64,000 nucleotides of DNA, from the sequence record OP172791; one strand, written 5' to 3'. Below are positions 8,315-17,502 of the stretch, piece by piece (within the stretch, counting starts at the first letter, position 1; each line of letters starts with the position of its first letter). Source of the DNA: Escherichia phage ECO340P1. Under the pieces are notes generated by a model. The model worked only from the letters and a program-made list of their open reading frames with translations, searched no databases and was not told the origin of the DNA. Position numbers and translations under genes: made by a program.

Positions 8315-8878
8315 ATGATTTATTATATTACTCCCTATCTGACAGGAAATATCGGCAAGGCTATCAATGAAGCCATTGCCGTTCTTCCAGATGATAGTTG
8401 GGTGTGTTTAAGAGATACCGATACAATGTTCCTCCTACCTGATCAACCATCTATGCTTGAAGAGCTTGTTATGTCAAATCCGCCTTTTGATGTAATAGGT
8501 GCAACTTGTAACAGGTTAGGCAGTGGTTATCAGCTTTTCTCTAACCAAATTAACGATGATCCAGATATTCTAAACCATATAGAATATGCTAAGATTGCAA
8601 GAGAATATCATAAAGTGAGTGTTGAAGAAGTTCCTTTCGGAACACCTCTAGCAGGTTTCTTCTTGCTTTTTAGAAAATCATTGTGGAATGAAATTCCTTT
8701 CGAAGAAAAATCTATCCAATTCGACTTAATTTTCTCTCGCACTTTACATGAAAAAGGAAAGAGGTTAGGATTGATGCGGGGAATGTATCTGTTTCACATT
8801 TACAGATTAGGTCAAACAAATCCTCAACGGTCTATACATCATTTATTACACTGTCATGATCACAGTAAAACTATTTAG
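8315..8878 (+). CDS. hypothetical protein, possibly glycosyltransferase-related
   Basis: 187-aa ORF with GGAGGGGAGA RBS; first gene of a glycosyltransferase block; no firm motif. Confidence 0.4.
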   Translation: MIYYITPYLTGNIGKAINEAIAVLPDDSWVCLRDTDTMFLLPDQPSMLEELVMSNPPFDVIGATCNRLGSGYQLFSNQINDDPDILNHIEYAKIAREYHKVSVEEVPFGTPLAGFFLLFRKSLWNEIPFEEKSIQFDLIFSRTLHEKGKRLGLMRGMYLFHIYRLGQTNPQRSIHHLLHCHDHSKTI

Positions 8879-8886
8879 GAGAGAAA

Positions 8887-9570
8887 ATGGAAAATATTAA
8901 AATTGGAGTGGGTGTTATCACTGTAGGTGTCCGTCCACTTAAAGACTACCTTGTAACAGATCCACGTGCAGATTTTCGAGTATTCAACGATCCAGATCGT
9001 AAAGGTGTAGCTTATGCCAGGAATGAACTTATGCACCAGTTTTATGAAGAAGGTTATGATTATTGGTTTATTTTTGACGACGATTGCTACCCAGTCATGG
9101 AGGGATGGGAAACATACTTTGTAGGTCAAGCTGTCTCTGGAGGATGGGATTTCTTTGGTATGCCGGAGTATTTCAAAGATAAAGTTGTTGGAAGCAAAGG
9201 AGAAGTTATTCTCTGGGAACTTGCAATGTGTCAATTTGCAATGTATTCTCGTGCCGTTGTTGAGAAGATGGGTTATTTCCGTCCTTACACTCACGGCTAT
9301 GGTTTTGAAGATGCTGAATGGGGACACCGTTTGCAAGCTGCTGGTTTGAATCATGGTATTCAGGCAACACCTTGTCCACTTCGTATCATGGCTTATATCC
9401 ACCCAGACGATGTTTTTGGAAACAATCCTATGCCTTTTGCTAATCTGACAAAAGAAGAGAAAGAAGCTGCTATCGGGATTAACTGGGAAGAATATAAAGC
9501 ATCTTTAGAGGATATTAAAAATGGGAAAATCCGAATTTCCTATGAGGAGGCACTGGCACATGTCAAATAA
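8887..9570 (+). CDS. glycosyltransferase, GT-A fold (family 2-like)
   Basis: N-terminal beta-alpha-beta region GVGVITVGVR and DxD-type motif FDDDC. Confidence 0.55.
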   Translation: MENIKIGVGVITVGVRPLKDYLVTDPRADFRVFNDPDRKGVAYARNELMHQFYEEGYDYWFIFDDDCYPVMEGWETYFVGQAVSGGWDFFGMPEYFKDKVVGSKGEVILWELAMCQFAMYSRAVVEKMGYFRPYTHGYGFEDAEWGHRLQAAGLNHGIQATPCPLRIMAYIHPDDVFGNNPMPFANLTKEEKEAAIGINWEEYKASLEDIKNGKIRISYEEALAHVK

Positions 9571-10507
9571 AAAATGGTCTAAACTAAAAATTGATGCAAA
9601 ACCTCATAGCGGTTGTGACTATCATCGTATTGTTATGCCATTTAACAACAATAATTTTCAACCTAAGAAAGATATTGTTGTGTTTAACCGTATCCACTCT
9701 AAAGGTGCAGAATACGTTTTATCTTTGAAACGTCAAGGTGTTAAGGTTGTTGTAGATTTAGATGATTTTTACCAACTTAATCCAGAGCATTATTTAGCAA
9801 GTCTATACGAGTCAAACACTCATGCTATTGTAGCTATGGTTAAGCTTGCTGATGTGGTTATTGTGACTACAGAATATTTGGCATATAAGATCCGTCACTT
9901 AAATAGAAATGTCGTTGTGATCCGAAATGCACTTCCTTTTGATAGCGGACAATTCACTTTGTCAAATGATCGTTCATCCGGTACCCCTGTTGTATGGGCT
10001 GGCGGTGCTAGTCACGAACCAGATTTACGACTAGTCTCTAATACTTTCGATGATGAACTTCTTACTATTGCGGGATATGAAGCATCACAAAGCATCACGG
10101 GACAAGAGTGGATTAAGATTCGCAGAAATTTACCAAATGCCAAATATAAAGCTGCTGTAAAAGATTTAGATAATTACATGAGTGTTTACGAAAGTCATGC
10201 TATTGCTATAGCTCCTTTGGTAGACAATGATTTTAATAATTGTAAAAGTAATCTCAAAATCCTGGAAGCTGGAGCAAAAGGTATTCCGATTATTTGTTCT
10301 AAGGTATTACCTTATTTTAACCCTGTAGATGCTCGCGCTGTTGCTTACGCAGAGAATAAAGCAGAATGGCATTACGAAATTGTTAAGCTTCTTCGCAATC
10401 CAAACTATCGGGAAGATCGTGGCTTGTTCTTGGCTGAACATGTTCGAACACATTATAATCTGGCAGATGCAAACGAGTTGCGACGCCAGGTTATTGAAAG
10501 TTTGTAG
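9560..10507 (+). CDS. glycosyltransferase, GT-B fold (GT1/GT4-like), paralog of 10515-11459
   Basis: ATG at 9560 after GAGGAGG; C-terminal KSNLKILEAGAKGIPIICS resembles the GT-B nucleotide-sugar binding motif; clear paralogy with the next gene. Confidence 0.55.
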   Translation: MSNKKWSKLKIDAKPHSGCDYHRIVMPFNNNNFQPKKDIVVFNRIHSKGAEYVLSLKRQGVKVVVDLDDFYQLNPEHYLASLYESNTHAIVAMVKLADVVIVTTEYLAYKIRHLNRNVVVIRNALPFDSGQFTLSNDRSSGTPVVWAGGASHEPDLRLVSNTFDDELLTIAGYEASQSITGQEWIKIRRNLPNAKYKAAVKDLDNYMSVYESHAIAIAPLVDNDFNNCKSNLKILEAGAKGIPIICSKVLPYFNPVDARAVAYAENKAEWHYEIVKLLRNPNYREDRGLFLAEHVRTHYNLADANELRRQVIESL

Positions 10508-10514
10508 GTGAAGT

Positions 10515-11459
10515 ATGGGACAAATAATTCTTGACAATCGTAACGGAATCAATTATAGTGTCTGCGATTTCCATAGGGTAGTGCTGCCTTACTCAAGGCA
10601 GTTCTCTTCACAACCTAAATACAACGTTTTCGTTTTTAACGGAGTGCCAACAAAAGGTAAAGAGGGCTTTTTAGCCCTTAAAAACCTAGGCTTTAAAATG
10701 GTTATGGATTTGGATGACTCTTTAGTTATTCCAAAAGGACACATGTTAGAAGGTATTTTTGAATCAGGTATTCGTGAACATTTAAAATGGTTTTTAGAGC
10801 ACAGTGATCTTGTTACAACTACGACACCTGCCTTGCAAGTTGAACTTTCACAATACAATGATAATGTGCACATAATCCCTAATGGACTTCCTTATGACGA
10901 AGGTCAATTTGTGTTGACCCGTGATCGCTACTCCAAAACTCCATTAGTCTGGGCTGGAAGTGAAACACATAAGCAAGATTTGGCTATCTTGCCCGATTTT
11001 GGTAAAGATCTTACAATATGTGGTTTTCGTAGGGATTCTGAAGTTTTAAGTAGTCGTGAATGGTCTGTAATCAGAGAAAATGTAGCACCAACTTGTGTTT
11101 ATGAAGGTGTAAGACCATATGCCAACTACATGGAATCTTACGATGGTCATCAAATCAGTCTTGCGCCACTGATTGATAACGTGTTTAATAATGCAAAAAG
11201 CAATCTTAAAATTCTTGAGGCAGGTGCTAAGGGTTTACCTTTGATCTGTTCTCCTCGTGAGAATTATCATACACAAGAGTTTAAAGATCTGTTGTTCTTT
11301 GCTGAAACACCTTCCGAGTGGAAAGATATTACGGAATACTTATTAAGTGCTCCCGATGTTTGCATGGAGAAAGGATTAGCATTAGCTAAGTATGTCAGGA
11401 CTCATTATCACATTGATGTGTTGAATGAGCGTCGTAGACTTTTATTTGAGGAGCTATAA
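10515..11459 (+). CDS. glycosyltransferase, GT-B fold (GT1/GT4-like), paralog of 9560-10507
   Basis: Shares CDYHRIVMPF/CDFHRVVLPY, PVVWAGGASHEPDL/PLVWAGSETHKQDL and KSNLKILEAGAKG motifs with the upstream gene. Confidence 0.55.
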   Translation: MGQIILDNRNGINYSVCDFHRVVLPYSRQFSSQPKYNVFVFNGVPTKGKEGFLALKNLGFKMVMDLDDSLVIPKGHMLEGIFESGIREHLKWFLEHSDLVTTTTPALQVELSQYNDNVHIIPNGLPYDEGQFVLTRDRYSKTPLVWAGSETHKQDLAILPDFGKDLTICGFRRDSEVLSSREWSVIRENVAPTCVYEGVRPYANYMESYDGHQISLAPLIDNVFNNAKSNLKILEAGAKGLPLICSPRENYHTQEFKDLLFFAETPSEWKDITEYLLSAPDVCMEKGLALAKYVRTHYHIDVLNERRRLLFEEL

Positions 11460-11749: not shown

Positions 11750-13528
11750 GTGTCGCACATTATAACTAAATATGGATTTGATGTTGATCTTAGCAAGGAA
11801 GGGCATACAGGTTGTCCGCGCTGCATGAAAAATGGCAAGGATCGCTCTCGTAATAACCTGATGGTTTATGGATTAGATTCTAATGGAGAGCATAAAGGTG
11901 CTAAGTGCTTTGCGTGTGAATACACTATTCCTAGCGTAGAATGGTTACGAGAAAATGGTGAAGTTTTAGAAGAAGAGGAGGAGATTGTGGGTTCGGAATT
12001 TAATAAACAGATTCATCGTAAAATTGTTCAAGAAACATCAACCAACCCACGTGGTTATCGAGGAATTAAAGAAAAAGTTTCATCTTTCTATGGTGTTCGT
12101 TATGAATACCGTCAGGAAGGGGATCAGATGGTAGTAGAAAGTTGTTTATATCCGACTACTATCGGTAAAGAATTGGTTGGTTTTAAGCGTCGTATTCATC
12201 CTAAAGATTTCAGTAAACCTATTGGTCAAGTAGGTAAAGATGTAGATCTTTTTGGACAAATTCGTTTTGCAGACCGTTCTCATACTGTGGTAATTACAGG
12301 TGGTGAACACGATGCTCTGGCAGCTTATCAAATGCTATCTGAAAACTTGGACAACAAGTATGAACTTCCAGCAGTAGTTAGTGGCACAACTGGTGAAACC
12401 AGTATGTATAAACAAGTTCAGGCACAATATCCTTTCTTTGAAAAATTTAAGAAGATTATTGTTTGCATGGATAATGACAAAGCAGGTAATGAAGCATTTG
12501 AAAATATTGTTAAGGTGCTGCCTCGTAACAAAGTCTACCGTATGCAGATGGATCTTAAGGATGCCAATCAGTATCTGGAAGAAGGTCGTGCAAAAGATTT
12601 CGTAAAAGCTTTTTGGAGTGCTCGTCTATACACCCCAGCAGGTGTTTATGCTTCTAATGTCTTGTATGAAGCTGCATTAGAATGCTTGGAATCCAAGATG
12701 ATTACCTTGCCTCCTTTTATGCGTGTAGCTGCAAACATGCTGGGTGGTGGTTTAGTAGAGGAAGAGATTACAGTCATCCTGGCAAAGACCAGTATCGGTA
12801 AAACTTTAATGGTGAACGAGATCACCAAACATATTATTGTTGCGCACCCAGAACATACCCTAGGTATCCTGTCCTTGGAAGCAACTTATAAGAAATATTC
12901 TCGTAACCTGTTGTCCTCGTTCCTGCATATTCCTCTACACAGGAAAACACCGGAAGAGAAATTTCAAATCTTGGAAGAGAATAAAGAAAAAATCCTAGAT
13001 TTTTACGAAAGAGAAGATGGATCACCACGTTTTTATGTGTGTGATGATCGTGGAGCAGATGTGGAGTCTATCAAAGAAAAAGTTTTGGAGATGATCATCT
13101 ATTTTGGAGTAACAATTCTTGTTATCGACCCTTATTCTGATTTGCTTTCTGGTATGGATGTTCAAGCCCAGGAAGAGTTAGCAACATGGTTGAAGCGCAT
13201 CATGAAAGAGTATGCTATAACTATTATCGTCATCTCACACGTTAAGAAATCGGCTAATGGTGGCAATGAACACTTAACAGAGGACGATGCAATGGGTAGT
13301 AGTTTCTTGGCTAAAGGTGCTGGTATTACCTTGGCTTTGGAACGAGATAAAGCCGCTGAAGACCCTGTAGAACGCAATACGACTCATTGCTTTATCCTAA
13401 AAAACCGTGAGTTCTCGGAAACTGGTCCGGCAGGGCAGTTTTACTATGACATTAGAACTGCAACTCTGCATGACAAAGAGCAGTATTTCAACAATCCTGC
13501 TAATTTGCCTACGGATAGCAACTATTAA
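11750..13528 (+). CDS. bifunctional DNA primase-helicase (T7 gp4-like)
   Basis: GTG start after AGGAGA; N-terminal zinc ribbon CPRC...CFAC, TOPRIM motifs (GGEHDALAAY, CMDNDKAGNEA), helicase Walker A KTSIGKT. Confidence 0.85.
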   Translation: MSHIITKYGFDVDLSKEGHTGCPRCMKNGKDRSRNNLMVYGLDSNGEHKGAKCFACEYTIPSVEWLRENGEVLEEEEEIVGSEFNKQIHRKIVQETSTNPRGYRGIKEKVSSFYGVRYEYRQEGDQMVVESCLYPTTIGKELVGFKRRIHPKDFSKPIGQVGKDVDLFGQIRFADRSHTVVITGGEHDALAAYQMLSENLDNKYELPAVVSGTTGETSMYKQVQAQYPFFEKFKKIIVCMDNDKAGNEAFENIVKVLPRNKVYRMQMDLKDANQYLEEGRAKDFVKAFWSARLYTPAGVYASNVLYEAALECLESKMITLPPFMRVAANMLGGGLVEEEITVILAKTSIGKTLMVNEITKHIIVAHPEHTLGILSLEATYKKYSRNLLSSFLHIPLHRKTPEEKFQILEENKEKILDFYEREDGSPRFYVCDDRGADVESIKEKVLEMIIYFGVTILVIDPYSDLLSGMDVQAQEELATWLKRIMKEYAITIIVISHVKKSANGGNEHLTEDDAMGSSFLAKGAGITLALERDKAAEDPVERNTTHCFILKNREFSETGPAGQFYYDIRTATLHDKEQYFNNPANLPTDSNY

Positions 13529-13547
13529 GGGCTTCGGCCCTTTTATT
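13527..13547 (+). terminator. Rho-independent terminator after the primase-helicase
   Basis: Stem AAGGGC / GCCCTT with TTCG loop, followed by TTTTATT. Confidence 0.65.
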
Positions 13548-13558
13548 AAAAATACCTG

Positions 13559-13587
13559 TTGACAACTTTGCGGAAGGGACTTATACT
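13559..13587 (+). promoter_or_regulatory. strong sigma70-like promoter (TTGACA-N17-TATACT)
   Basis: Consensus -35 at 13559-13564, 17-nt spacer, -10 TATACT at 13582-13587. Confidence 0.65.
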
Positions 13588-13620
13588 TGTCTCATCAACC
13601 AAACAAGAGGAGAAGTAAAA

Positions 13621-14052
13621 ATGCGTATGACAATCGATCTGAATGCAAAAGTTAAAGCTGCTGGTGCTCTGGGTGCTGGTGTTATTAAACACAAACAAGC
13701 GTTGGCATTTGCCATCCCACATATGATTGTTGAGGATCATCCTGAAGAGTTTGCTGTAAAAGTTGTTGAGAACAATGTCTCTGTTATTGAACATCTTCCA
13801 ACTGGACGTTCTTACCGTGTTGTTTCTTCTAAAGGTTTCCGTTTCGATGTAAGCCCTTCTTTCACAAAAGGTGCTGGTCGTAGTAAAGTGGGTATTCTTT
13901 CTTACAAATATTATATCGATAAAGTTGCAGATGGTGTTGCATTCTGTCGTGTAAGTGAAGGTAAAGTAGATATCATCTTTAAAAATACTAAAAACATGGT
14001 TATTTCTGATGATGGTAAAGTTGACCTCACTATTGAGTTCGCTAACAACTAA
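13621..14052 (+). CDS. hypothetical protein (behind the strongest promoter in the window)
   Basis: 143-aa ORF with AGGAGAAG RBS; no motif recognised. Confidence 0.5.
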   Translation: MRMTIDLNAKVKAAGALGAGVIKHKQALAFAIPHMIVEDHPEEFAVKVVENNVSVIEHLPTGRSYRVVSSKGFRFDVSPSFTKGAGRSKVGILSYKYYIDKVADGVAFCRVSEGKVDIIFKNTKNMVISDDGKVDLTIEFANN

Positions 14053-14061
14053 GGAGGACTA

Positions 14062-14856
14062 TTGAGCAAGTTGAACACACTTGATCAATATTACACTAAC
14101 CCCGCTTATGCGGGGTTCTTATGTGATAAGATCAAAGAAATTTTTGGAGAGGAAGCTAACTACGTAGAACCATCTGCGGGAGAAGGAGCTTTCTCTTCTT
14201 GTTTTAAAAACATAACTTCTTTTGATATTGACCCTAAGTTTGAAGATTGTATTGAGGCAGATTTTTTAGCTCAATCTGTTGAGTCTGTTGGTAGTGTAAC
14301 TGCTTTTGTCGGTAATCCTCCATTTGGAAAAAATGCTAGTCTTGCCATTAAATTCTTTAACCATTGTGCTGAAATGCTGGATAACGAAGGTGGTATTTGT
14401 TTTATCTTGCCTCGCACATTTCAAAAAATCTTTTTTGCACACAAGCTAAATCCCCATATGCATCTTCTTTACGAAGAAGAATGTCCAAAAGGATCTTTTA
14501 TTCTTCATGGAGAACCTTGGGATGTTCCTTGTGTATTCCAGGTATGGATTAAACGCAACGAGAAGCGTTCTCCCGTTGTTTTAGGAGAGAATCGACTATT
14601 CGTATTAGGTAACAGTAAAGACTACGATATAGCCGTTAGGAGAGCGGGAGCAAGTGCAGGTAAAGTGTTATCAGAAGAAGATTCTTTATCTGAAGCATCT
14701 ACCTATTTTTTAAAAGCCTTGACTTCTGATCTTAAAACGCGTATCATTGAGGCTTACCCGTTACTTAAAGCTGAAGCTAGTAAAACTGCGGGAGTAAGAA
14801 GTTTAAGTTTAAAAGAACTTCAGTGGGTTCTGGAGAACATTAGAAAGGAGGAATAG
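14062..14856 (+). CDS. DNA amino-methyltransferase (N6-adenine or N4-cytosine)
   Basis: TTG start after AAGGAGGA; SAM-binding-like EPSAGEGAF and catalytic NPPF motifs. Confidence 0.6.
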   Translation: MSKLNTLDQYYTNPAYAGFLCDKIKEIFGEEANYVEPSAGEGAFSSCFKNITSFDIDPKFEDCIEADFLAQSVESVGSVTAFVGNPPFGKNASLAIKFFNHCAEMLDNEGGICFILPRTFQKIFFAHKLNPHMHLLYEEECPKGSFILHGEPWDVPCVFQVWIKRNEKRSPVVLGENRLFVLGNSKDYDIAVRRAGASAGKVLSEEDSLSEASTYFLKALTSDLKTRIIEAYPLLKAEASKTAGVRSLSLKELQWVLENIRKEE

Positions 14857-17453
14857 TGAGTAAGTTTACATGGGATATTGAAGCAAACGGATTGTTGAAT
14901 AATGACACTATTGATTATTTAGCTAGTCCTTATCGTCTCAAAGACACATTTCAAATGCACTGTATTGTCTTAGAGAACCATGAAACAGGAGAAATAGTAG
15001 CTTTCCACGATGGCCCTAAATACATCTTTGATGGGCGTCCTTACGAAGAGTCAGATGGTAAATACACATATGTTCTTAAAGAGTATGTGGCGCAAGATTA
15101 CACACATTTTCAACTAAAAGATTTCCCAGATTTTATTAATCATGAAGGTTATTTTAAAGACAAGCCTGAATATCTAGTTGAAATGGCTGTGGCTCACAAC
15201 GGTATCAACTACGACTGGTTGGCTACAAAACTGTTTTATGGATTAGATTACAGTGTTAAATATAATACGTGGGGCAAAAATAAGGTAAAACTTATTGACT
15301 CCTTGATTTTGAGTAAAGTGTTAAACCCAGATCGAAAGATTGAGGGCAAATCAGGACATAGCTTGGCAGCACTTTCTCGAAAAGCAGGTGGTGATGTAAA
15401 AATAGATTTCCGTAAAGAGATTCCAGAAGAAGATCGATTTAAGACTTTTGCTGCGGATATGCTTTATTACTGTATCTATGACAACAAAGCCAATACGAGC
15501 GTATATAATTACCTTATGGAAGAATGGGGTGATTATGATAAATGGGAAGGTCCATTTGAACTTGAACAACGTGTAGCAGACATTATTACACGCCAGGAAC
15601 ACCGTGGGTTTGCTTTTAACATGAAACAAGCAGAAGAGAACCTTGCTTTTTTGGATGCAGAAATGGAGCGTCTTCGTTTACTCGTTGAGCCTATTTTGCC
15701 ACCTAAACCAGCAACAAAAGGTTATCTTAAGGCTTTTATTCCACCTAAGTTGCAAATTAAAAAGAACTTAGAGCCAACTAACCATATGATCAATTTTGCT
15801 AAGAAACATGATGGTCATTTGGAAGAGAGGGATGGCGATTGGTGGTTAGTTATGTTGGGGAAAGAGTGGAAACTGCCAGTTGCAGCAGATGAGCCTCTAT
15901 GTGATCCTAACATTCCTGCAACATTGAACGATACAACCCATATTAAAAACTGGCTTGTAGGATTAGGTTGGGTACCGTCTGAATATAAAGATAAAGACTT
16001 GACGCTTAAATCTGGCACCAAAATTAAAAAGAGCGAGGAAGAACTTCAGAAAGGTATTAGAGCTTACGTTGAGCAAACTCTATCTTCTAATTTTTGTCAG
16101 GATCGTTGTGATCATCTGGAGTGCACACCGGAAACTTTGGAAAGGAAGATTCAAGAGCGTATAGCAAAAGGTAAAGGTCGCGGTCTTAAAGTATTGACTA
16201 ACCCATGTTTTACCAAAGGTCAGGAAAAAGAAATTTGTCCTAACCTGCAAGCTTTGGGTGAGAAATTTCCTTATGCTACACAGATTGTAGAATACTTAAC
16301 GTATAAGCATCGTAGGAACTCTATTTTAGGTGGCGGTGCTGATTGGGAAGAAGATGAAGAAGATCAAGAATACGATAAAGGTTTCTTAGCCGCAGTAAGG
16401 GCGGATGGGCGTATTCCTACACCAGCCGCTACATGTGATGCTGCAACCTCTCGTATGAAACATAGATCTGTAGCTAATATTCCTCGTGTCACATCTTTGT
16501 TTGGATGGGAGATGCGTAACTTGTTTGGTGTAGAGGTTCCTAAATACTTCCAGATCGGCTACGACTTCGACTCTTTGGAAGCAAAAATTGAATCACATTA
16601 CTGTTGGCGGTACGAGCCGGAGCCACACGAGTATTGTAACGCTCTGTTGTTAGAGAAACCTAATGATGTTCACACAATGATGGCAAAACGTATCACTGAA
16701 ACTATTGGACGTAAATTTGAACGTAGTCCTGCTAAATCTGTTAAGTATGGTATTACCTATGGTGCACAAGCCGACAAGGTTGCTAAAACAATTGGTAGCG
16801 ACAAGTTTACAGGTCAATTGGTGTTCGATGCTTTCTGGGAAGCTGCATTCCCATTGGCGCGTCTTAAAGAACGTTTAAACGATTTCTGGGTTAAGACTGG
16901 TAAACAATATGTTTTGGGTATTGACGGTCGTAAGGTTCCTACTCGTTCTGCTCACGCGATTCTTAACTCTCTGTTCCAAAGCGGTGGGGTTATCTGTGCT
17001 AAACGTGCAATGGTTATTTATGATGACATGATCGAAGAAGAAGGGCTAAGTGTTGACTTCTTTAAAGATGACTGGAAGAATAAAGACTTCGTGCAACAAA
17101 TGATTGCATATCACGATGAAGCCCAGCTTGAAGTTTCTCGTAACCTTGTAGAATTCAAATGGTTTTCACCTGAATCATTAGGTTGGAAGAAAGTAGACGA
17201 TCCTGAAGAACAAAAGAAAATTGATAAAGAATGCCTTGCTAAAGTCGAAGAATGGAAGCATAATAAGGAAAAAGAGACAGGGCAAATTTGGGCTAACATT
17301 CATGAATCTCCCAAAGGTGGATGGTTTACAGCCTATAGTCGGGCAGGTGAACTTGCTGCTTTAGCTGTTACTAAAGCTGGAGAATTTTACAATCTTAATG
17401 TTCAGCTTACTGCTGGATATGACGTGGGGAATTCCTGGGCCAGTTGTCACTAA
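14856..17453 (+). CDS. family A DNA polymerase with 3'-5' exonuclease domain
   Basis: Exo I motif TWDIEANGL; polymerase motifs YDFDSLEAKI (A), KSVKYGITYGAQ (B), YHDEAQLEV (C). Confidence 0.85.
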   Translation: MSKFTWDIEANGLLNNDTIDYLASPYRLKDTFQMHCIVLENHETGEIVAFHDGPKYIFDGRPYEESDGKYTYVLKEYVAQDYTHFQLKDFPDFINHEGYFKDKPEYLVEMAVAHNGINYDWLATKLFYGLDYSVKYNTWGKNKVKLIDSLILSKVLNPDRKIEGKSGHSLAALSRKAGGDVKIDFRKEIPEEDRFKTFAADMLYYCIYDNKANTSVYNYLMEEWGDYDKWEGPFELEQRVADIITRQEHRGFAFNMKQAEENLAFLDAEMERLRLLVEPILPPKPATKGYLKAFIPPKLQIKKNLEPTNHMINFAKKHDGHLEERDGDWWLVMLGKEWKLPVAADEPLCDPNIPATLNDTTHIKNWLVGLGWVPSEYKDKDLTLKSGTKIKKSEEELQKGIRAYVEQTLSSNFCQDRCDHLECTPETLERKIQERIAKGKGRGLKVLTNPCFTKGQEKEICPNLQALGEKFPYATQIVEYLTYKHRRNSILGGGADWEEDEEDQEYDKGFLAAVRADGRIPTPAATCDAATSRMKHRSVANIPRVTSLFGWEMRNLFGVEVPKYFQIGYDFDSLEAKIESHYCWRYEPEPHEYCNALLLEKPNDVHTMMAKRITETIGRKFERSPAKSVKYGITYGAQADKVAKTIGSDKFTGQLVFDAFWEAAFPLARLKERLNDFWVKTGKQYVLGIDGRKVPTRSAHAILNSLFQSGGVICAKRAMVIYDDMIEEEGLSVDFFKDDWKNKDFVQQMIAYHDEAQLEVSRNLVEFKWFSPESLGWKKVDDPEEQKKIDKECLAKVEEWKHNKEKETGQIWANIHESPKGGWFTAYSRAGELAALAVTKAGEFYNLNVQLTAGYDVGNSWASCH

Positions 17454-17471
17454 TCTAACGTATTGTTTTAT

Positions 17472-17492
17472 AAGGGGCTTCTGCCCCTTTAT
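17472..17492 (+). terminator. hairpin terminator after the DNA polymerase
   Basis: Stem AGGGGC / GCCCCT with TTCT loop, then TTTAT. Confidence 0.5.
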
Positions 17493-17502
17493 AGGAGAAG
17501 AT

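Follow-up and report, generated by a model that had tools for sequence, protein, structure and literature searches.

Gene content and predicted expression of the locus

The window analysed here is a 64,000-nucleotide stretch of DNA from Escherichia phage ECO340P1 (sequence record OP172791), of which positions 13000–17500 share 98–99.8% nucleotide identity with phAPEC8-like phages (Phapecoctavirus, Stephanstirmvirinae). In the early replication block of the phAPEC8 reference, four glycosyltransferases are followed by a primase/helicase, a promoter, gp077, gp078 and DNA polymerase I. The same order of primase/helicase, gp077-like gene (hereafter the partner), methyltransferase and Pol I as in the window is found in Klebsiella phage 05F01. 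The features of the window are as follows; conservation refers to 56 homologs of the methyltransferase.

8315–11459, + strand: four glycosyltransferases, matching the annotation of phAPEC8 gp071–074
13559–13587, + strand: sigma-70-type promoter-like site TTGACA-17-TATACT, 11 of 12 consensus matches, directly upstream of the partner ORF
13621–14052, + strand: partner ORF, 143 aa; phAPEC8 gp077; PHROG 9938 ('unknown function'); restriction-endonuclease-derived PD-(D/E)xK fold with a remodelled active site
14052–14057, + strand: Shine–Dalgarno sequence AGGAGG, read from the sequence, 4 nt 5' of the methyltransferase TTG start
14062–14856, + strand: gamma-class N6-adenine DNA methyltransferase ORF (predicted activity), 264 aa; phAPEC8 gp078; PHROG 5172; PADLOC MTase_II PDLC03255
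14167–14193, + strand: motif I (SAM binding) EPSAGEGAF, residues 36–44; E36, P37, A39, G40 and G42 invariant
14314–14325, + strand: motif IV (catalytic) NPPF, residues 85–88; N85, P86, P87 and G89 invariant, F88 at least 90%
14638–14664, + strand: family-specific RRAGASAGK, residues 193–201, in the C-terminal domain; R194, G196 and G200 invariant, R193 and V195 at least 90%
14785–14808, + strand: family-specific TAGVRSLS, residues 242–249, in the C-terminal domain; G244 and S247 invariant, T242 at least 90%
14856–17453, + strand: DNA polymerase I gene, GTG start (RefSeq phAPEC8 annotation)

The promoter-like site lies exactly where phAPEC8 annotates a 'putative host dependent promoter'. The methyltransferase gene ends in a TAG that shares 1 nt with the GTG start of the polymerase, which makes translational coupling or co-transcription likely. 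Together with the promoter-like site, the lack of terminator-like sites between 13300 and 17700 and the spacing of 9 nt between the partner stop and the methyltransferase start, this overlap indicates that the pair is probably co-transcribed with DNA polymerase I. Three successive replication genes use non-ATG starts, namely the primase/helicase (GTG, 11750), the methyltransferase (TTG, 14062) and the polymerase (GTG, 14856). Elsewhere in the window, a cluster of ten tRNA genes (59060–60982, − strand: Met twice, Ile, Pro, Gln, Gly, Thr, Asn, Ser and Arg) agrees with the 10–11 tRNAs reported for phAPEC8-like phages.

An earlier note on this DNA placed the methyltransferase next to the DNA polymerase, and the ORF that follows it is indeed DNA polymerase I. 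The functional link to the glycosyltransferases that the note also proposed is rejected, because only in phAPEC8-like genomes do the glycosyltransferases accompany the pair: they are absent from its vicinity in rV5 and in metagenomic phage contigs, and in the window itself the primase/helicase gene lies between.

Several of the records consulted carry annotation or labelling oddities (MN850627, MN850578, MN850630, LR597654, OP562383 and MG0656xx). One 'Acinetobacter phage' record is 99.8% identical to the window, and over 20 entries titled 'Campylobacter phage' contain rV5-like coliphage genomes.

Family, fold and substrate of the methyltransferase

The NPPF tetrapeptide alone is weak evidence for a methyltransferase, because translating the window in six frames yields five instances of the pattern [DNS]PP[YFW]; one chance NPPF sits in the first glycosyltransferase ORF (8315–8878), where methyltransferase context is lacking. 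What lifts the assignment beyond chance is that motif I precedes motif IV by about 49 residues, together with the invariant residues and a confident class-I fold. The alignment comprised 56 homologs with 37–90% identity, drawn from 2427 database matches; D55 and P58 are likewise invariant in it, and the N-terminus MSKxxxLDQYYT is common to the homologs. The SAM-binding-like EPSAGEGAF and the catalytic NPPF, from which the earlier note had recognized an amino-methyltransferase, are thus both present and conserved, in agreement with the fold, and the possibility that NPPF might vary among homologs, which would have undermined the assignment, is contradicted by the alignment.

The AlphaFold model built from this alignment (pLDDT 93.9, pTM 0.89) has a class-I Rossmann methyltransferase fold, and its best Foldseek matches in the PDB are M.TaqI, M.BseCI, CamA and a Type I M subunit. 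Near-full-length structural alignment is obtained only with gamma-class N6-adenine DNA methyltransferases (M.TaqI, MmeI, M.BseCI and CamA), and the superposition on M.TaqI-type enzymes includes part of the C-terminal domain. The order of elements is that of the gamma class, with motif I (36–44) followed by motif IV (85–88) and then by the C-terminal domain (approximately 170–264), and the conserved NPPF conforms to the gamma-class pattern (N/D/S)PP(Y/F/W). From the Asn-type motif IV, the gamma order and the exclusively adenine-specific structural neighbours we infer specificity for adenine N6. The C-terminal domain, which contains RRAGASAGK, is the putative target-recognition domain.

At the level of sequence models, the PADLOC Type II methyltransferase model PDLC03255 matches over the full length (E 3.6e-36), and PHROG 5172, whose function label is unknown, is also a strong match. 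Pfam PF07669 (Eco57I) reaches only 15.6 bits against a gathering threshold of 25.3 (E 0.017), and only over residues 90–130. NCBIfam returned no match for the query or for eight homologs, and a PDB sequence search with the methyltransferase found nothing significant. Precomputed matches to PF26055 (Mtase_EDM2) are on record for many family members but not for the query's close relatives; the local Pfam scan gave no match to this model, even for homologs with a precomputed match. Many viral relatives lie on giant-virus metagenome bins (GVMAG contigs, for example L100, L102, L103, L108 and L109). Since some members carry PF26055 and others lie on GVMAG contigs, the family spans bacteria, phages, giant viruses and plants.

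The nature of the substrate is indicated by the bacterial relatives, for which 79 loci were fetched. In 21 of these a protein of about 215 aa is encoded directly 3' of the methyltransferase on the same strand, and all 14 such neighbours that were tested match PADLOC REase_II PDLC03460; in five further loci the methyltransferase is followed by a protein of about 160 aa that matches REase_II PDLC03550. In 26 of the 79 loci, then, a member of the family serves as the methyltransferase of a Type II pair, and the substrate of the family is accordingly DNA. The two restriction endonuclease (REase) families concerned, A2 and A4, are unrelated to one another (hhalign probability 2%), neither group has a significant match to a named Pfam REase family or in a PDB sequence search, and database searches for the recognition site returned no enzyme names. 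Taken together, the ORF at 14062–14856 is, by its predicted activity, an adenine DNA methyltransferase of a phAPEC8-like coliphage.

The remaining bacterial loci are varied. Neither REase type is adjacent in 52 of the 79, and in several Sphingomonadales genomes (L013, L014, L039, L054 and related Sphingomonas loci) the homolog occupies a conserved chromosomal neighbourhood with both REase types absent beside it; these homologs may be true bacterial orphans, or may be paired with undetected REase families. In Poseidonibacter ostreae (L002:4701–7740) the restriction–modification pair of this family adjoins an N6_Mtase/MmeI-like methyltransferase and a Methylase_S subunit, and the locus, flanked by IS1595 and mutator-type transposases, forms a small mobile defence island. 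On a contig labelled 'MAG: Rickettsia typhi' the canonical REase ORF (L083:4791–5447, 219 aa) ends in 57 residues that match the C-terminus of fumarase C (PF10415, E 3.8e-14), which suggests that genes have fused, that a neighbouring gene is truncated or that the assembly is at fault.

Annotation of the gene as a methyltransferase is already public, the phAPEC8 and rV5 orthologs being recorded as 'putative DNA N6-adenine methyltransferase'. The rV5 record notes similarity to a Sphingopyxis alaskensis hypothetical protein and nothing else, and one GenBank record labels the methyltransferase 'DarB-like anti-restriction'.

The restriction-enzyme-derived partner

The partner at 13621–14052 is a homolog of restriction enzymes according to profile–profile comparison and fold. 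Its α–β–β–β–α–β core can be superposed on members of the PD-(D/E)xK superfamily; direct matches to REase HMMs were not obtained with the PADLOC REase models, and the PDB sequence searches by implication gave nothing significant. The weaker matches of the partner profile carry the textbook nuclease signature, for example SYDIYSDRAELYEVKTVT...PSNQHGQGR, and all seven of those tested hit PADLOC REase_II PDLC03550. Viral contigs also exist in which the REase lies upstream and retains an intact D...DxK site. Four long multi-stretch matches to the partner profile (P0128, P0136, P0141 and P0146) were all treated as artefacts, because the two that were inspected, P0136 and P0146, are tandem-repeat proteins.

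The active site was compared in an alignment of 21 partners, from 24 representatives found among 1.84 billion. In the canonical relatives D66 is conserved at 100%, E76 (the E of ExK) at 88% and K/R78 at 100%, whereas the partners read K/R-V-V at the ExK positions (canonical Y-E-V-K becoming Y-K/R-V-V) and have no acidic column above 76%. Conserved instead are K/R66 (95%), K83 (100%) and R87 (100%), and the motif P-S..G..R is common to the partner family and the canonical REases. The PD-(D/E)xK catalytic residues characteristic of a Type II enzyme are thus not kept, and the window contains no canonical restriction enzyme, an A2-type (PDLC03460-type) REase being absent from it (best E 1.8). With no invariant acidic residue and with ExK replaced, the partner is most likely not a conventional Mg-dependent restriction enzyme, and this residue pattern argues against the conventional two-metal or one-metal PD-(D/E)xK mechanism. 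Judged from the alignment, its nuclease function would on balance appear to have been lost or changed. Within the PD-(D/E)xK superfamily catalytic residues are known to have migrated, so residual nuclease activity is possible.

Partner and methyltransferase are linked well beyond the window. Homologs of the two abut one another in phage contigs that look unrelated and have different outer flanks, with NrdD/NrdG and PhoH in one contig and RNR/Thy1 and tail-fibre genes in another, and when 173 loci were searched with an iterated profile, the partner family adjoined the methyltransferase in about 19. In phAPEC8-like phages and six metagenomic contigs the partner lies upstream of the methyltransferase, and in rV5 (gp097) and its relatives it lies downstream. 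A tblastn search detects the partner in 65 records of phAPEC8-like phages and about 120 of rV5-like phages, so that about 185 phages carry the pair. Every one of these records either calls its product 'hypothetical' or mistakes it for another methyltransferase, and several use the name 'putative DNA N6-adenine methyltransferase' a second time, for the rV5-type partner. Strict coupling of the methyltransferase to a polymerase was considered as a general rule and rejected: it holds in Stephanstirmvirinae and not everywhere. In rV5 the methyltransferase gene comes after that of the Pol exonuclease subunit, and elsewhere the pair adjoins NrdD/NrdG or RNR/Thy1. A contig deposited as 'MAG: Proteobacteria bacterium' (L006, JAEZZU010000159.1) carries the same partner ORF as the window together with a methyltransferase 99% identical to the one there; most likely it comes from a phAPEC8-like phage and was mis-binned as bacterial.

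In a neighbour-joining tree of 165 methyltransferases of the family, calculated without support values, the partner-bearing enzymes form one clade, and the nearest methyltransferases outside it in the same tree have canonical PDLC03550-type REases beside them. The partner is missing from Felix O1-like and KIL-like phages, whose methyltransferases are more distantly related. Within the clade, wherever there is flanking sequence, the REase-derived gene adjoins the methyltransferase. The description of the methyltransferase as an orphan consequently does not hold: although the window has no canonical REase, the gene immediately upstream is derived from one and is co-inherited. In the sequence records and literature searched, neither the REase-derived partner nor the module that it forms has been reported.

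The module, its alternatives and known systems

We consider it likely that an active gamma-class methyltransferase and a remodelled, REase-derived partner form a two-gene module that has been conserved. The simplest scenario is the capture of a small Type II restriction–modification pair by an ancestral phage, after which the methyltransferase would have been kept intact and the nuclease remodelled. The methyltransferase would be an active, SAM-dependent enzyme from a Type II restriction–modification lineage, driven together with the upstream gene and DNA polymerase I by an early host-type promoter, and would modify adenine within a short sequence of the replicating phage DNA. The partner would descend from the small PD-(D/E)xK REase that accompanies this methyltransferase family in bacteria and other viruses. 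In the clade containing the phAPEC8-like and rV5-like phages, D...ExK would have been replaced while another set of residues came to be conserved, leaving a maintained derivative that probably binds DNA. A more specific proposal, which we regard as tentative and rather doubtful, is that the partner is a catalytically lost, repurposed REase that reads the site of the methyltransferase and binds DNA in a methylation-sensitive manner; such a protein may mark or block unmethylated DNA of the host or of rival phages, may time gene expression or replication, or may poison a related host REase through inactive heterodimers.

Doubts about the substrate concern both the kind of molecule and the base. 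Methylation of RNA (rRNA or tRNA m6A, as by METTL5, Ta1320 or KsgA/Erm-like enzymes) or of protein glutamine (HemK-like) is most improbable, as such structural matches cover only about 150 core residues (136–153 for METTL5/Ta1320), only DNA methyltransferases align with the C-terminal 100 residues, the PADLOC models for Type II MTases match over the full length and Type II REases pair with the family in the bacterial loci described above (26 of 79). The single domain of about 200 aa and the sequence similarity typical of METTL5/Ta1320 are likewise not found, the E value being 0.25 and an extra C-terminal domain being present. Motifs of the form (D/N/S)PP(Y/F) are found in both the N4-cytosine and the N6-adenine classes, and the earlier note had left the choice between the two undecided. 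An N4-cytosine enzyme is nevertheless very unlikely, given that the DNA methyltransferases among the top structural matches are all adenine-specific. M.EcoRI is a further adenine enzyme with an Asn-first motif IV in the gamma order. The same combination in the adenine enzymes M.TaqI and M.HpyAXII (PMC2588503) also speaks against cytosine.

Two other readings address the relation between the genes. The pair might be a fully functional phage-borne Type II system in which the partner cuts unmethylated DNA of the host or of competitor phages through a non-canonical, relocated active site, and in which the methyltransferase shields the phage genome, as in the restriction–modification systems of chloroviruses. 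The fold and ancestry of the partner are those of a restriction enzyme, the gene arrangement matches real restriction–modification pairs in viral contigs, the partner is under purifying selection (K83 and R87 invariant, K/R in 95% at position 66), and relocated catalytic residues have precedents in its superfamily. Against these points, no acidic residue reaches 90% in the 21 partners, whereas the canonical relatives have an invariant D and a near-invariant E; the partner lacks a direct match to a PADLOC REase model, and the literature search found no phenotype of host-DNA degradation. We regard this reading as unlikely. Orphan methyltransferases are common in phages, and a stand-alone anti-restriction enzyme, beside an upstream ORF of unrelated function that is adjacent through shared phage ancestry, would suit the lack of a canonical REase in the window and the partnerless relatives in Felix O1-like and KIL-like phages. 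We judge this decidedly improbable, because the adjacency survives an inverted gene order (phAPEC8 versus rV5) and differing flanking genes, the partner is itself derived from a REase and its presence tracks the methyltransferase clade, and the pair-bearing rV5-like phages are described as 'exceptionally susceptible' to restriction–modification systems (PMC8594841).

This susceptibility also bears on the self-protection against host restriction that had been suggested for the methyltransferase. The orthologous pair also occurs in phages that were isolated with E. coli K-12 as host and bear the names of BASEL isolates (EmilHeitz, DrSchubert, MaxTheCat and others), and in view of this and of the reported sensitivity the methyltransferase is not a broad anti-restriction device. 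Self-protection in the broad form is weakly supported, and protection would be limited at most to one cognate specificity. Neither methylomes nor restriction digests of phAPEC8-like or rV5-like phages turned up in the literature searched; a ClaI/Dam result published for phage CB7 relates to a methylase with a Dam-type annotation.

The methyltransferase alone is routine and was annotated before; what is new is the conserved REase-derived gene beside it in about 185 phages, which replaces the assumption of an orphan anti-restriction methyltransferase, itself a poor fit with the reported sensitivity to restriction–modification systems. The rV5-like and phAPEC8-like phages are widely isolated for phage therapy. 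If the partner still cuts DNA, these lytic phages possess a restriction–modification system of their own, with a bearing on host-DNA degradation and on how phages compete; if catalysis has been lost, the protein clearly exemplifies a restriction enzyme turned to another role. Should the methylation-sensitive reader prove true, it would define a new methyltransferase-plus-reader module across these two groups of therapeutic coliphages. Either way, PHROG 9938 gains a testable function.

Compared with M.TaqI, M.BseCI, CamA and the methyltransferase domain of MmeI, the window protein is shorter (264 aa versus 382–751 residues in the matched chains). Sequence identity to the M.TaqI-type enzymes is 13–19%, and unlike them it has a C-terminal domain that is compact, at about 95 residues, and conserved motifs of its own, RRxGxxxGK and TAGVRSLS. 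The 'ELP' domain of plant EDM2 (PF26055) matches many family members, with no match recorded for the window protein itself. EDM2 is a large chromatin regulator, and we know of no demonstration of catalytic activity for this domain. T4 Dam and T1 Dam (alpha class, MethyltransfD12) are, like the window enzyme, phage-encoded adenine methyltransferases expressed with replication genes, but they differ in class, motif order and family and have no REase-derived neighbour; the window protein has no match to Pfam MethyltransfD12.

The closest counterparts are the bacterial and viral Type II pairs with REases of the PDLC03550 (about 160 aa) or PDLC03460 (about 215 aa) type, whose methyltransferases belong to the same family (35–43% identity) and whose small gene is immediately adjacent on the same strand, as in the window. 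The PDLC03550-type REase is a homolog of the partner and shares its P-S..G..R motif; the difference lies in the active site, as REases of both types keep E...D...(E/D)xK, whereas the phage partner has K/R and V at ExK and a new invariant K83. M.HpyAXII of H. pylori (GTAC) is a short gamma-class adenine methyltransferase with catalytic N87 (PMC2588503), a position nearly identical to that of N85 in the window protein, the two being compared by description. M.HpyAXII is maintained in H. pylori while R.HpyAXII decays by truncation or fusion (PMC2588503). The two proteins, of 331 and 252 aa, differ in size from those of the window, and in contrast to the decaying R.HpyAXII the partner is an intact derivative conserved across a large phage clade; by analogy, the H. 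pylori pair nevertheless offers a precedent for a conserved gamma-class adenine methyltransferase that loses its restriction enzyme.
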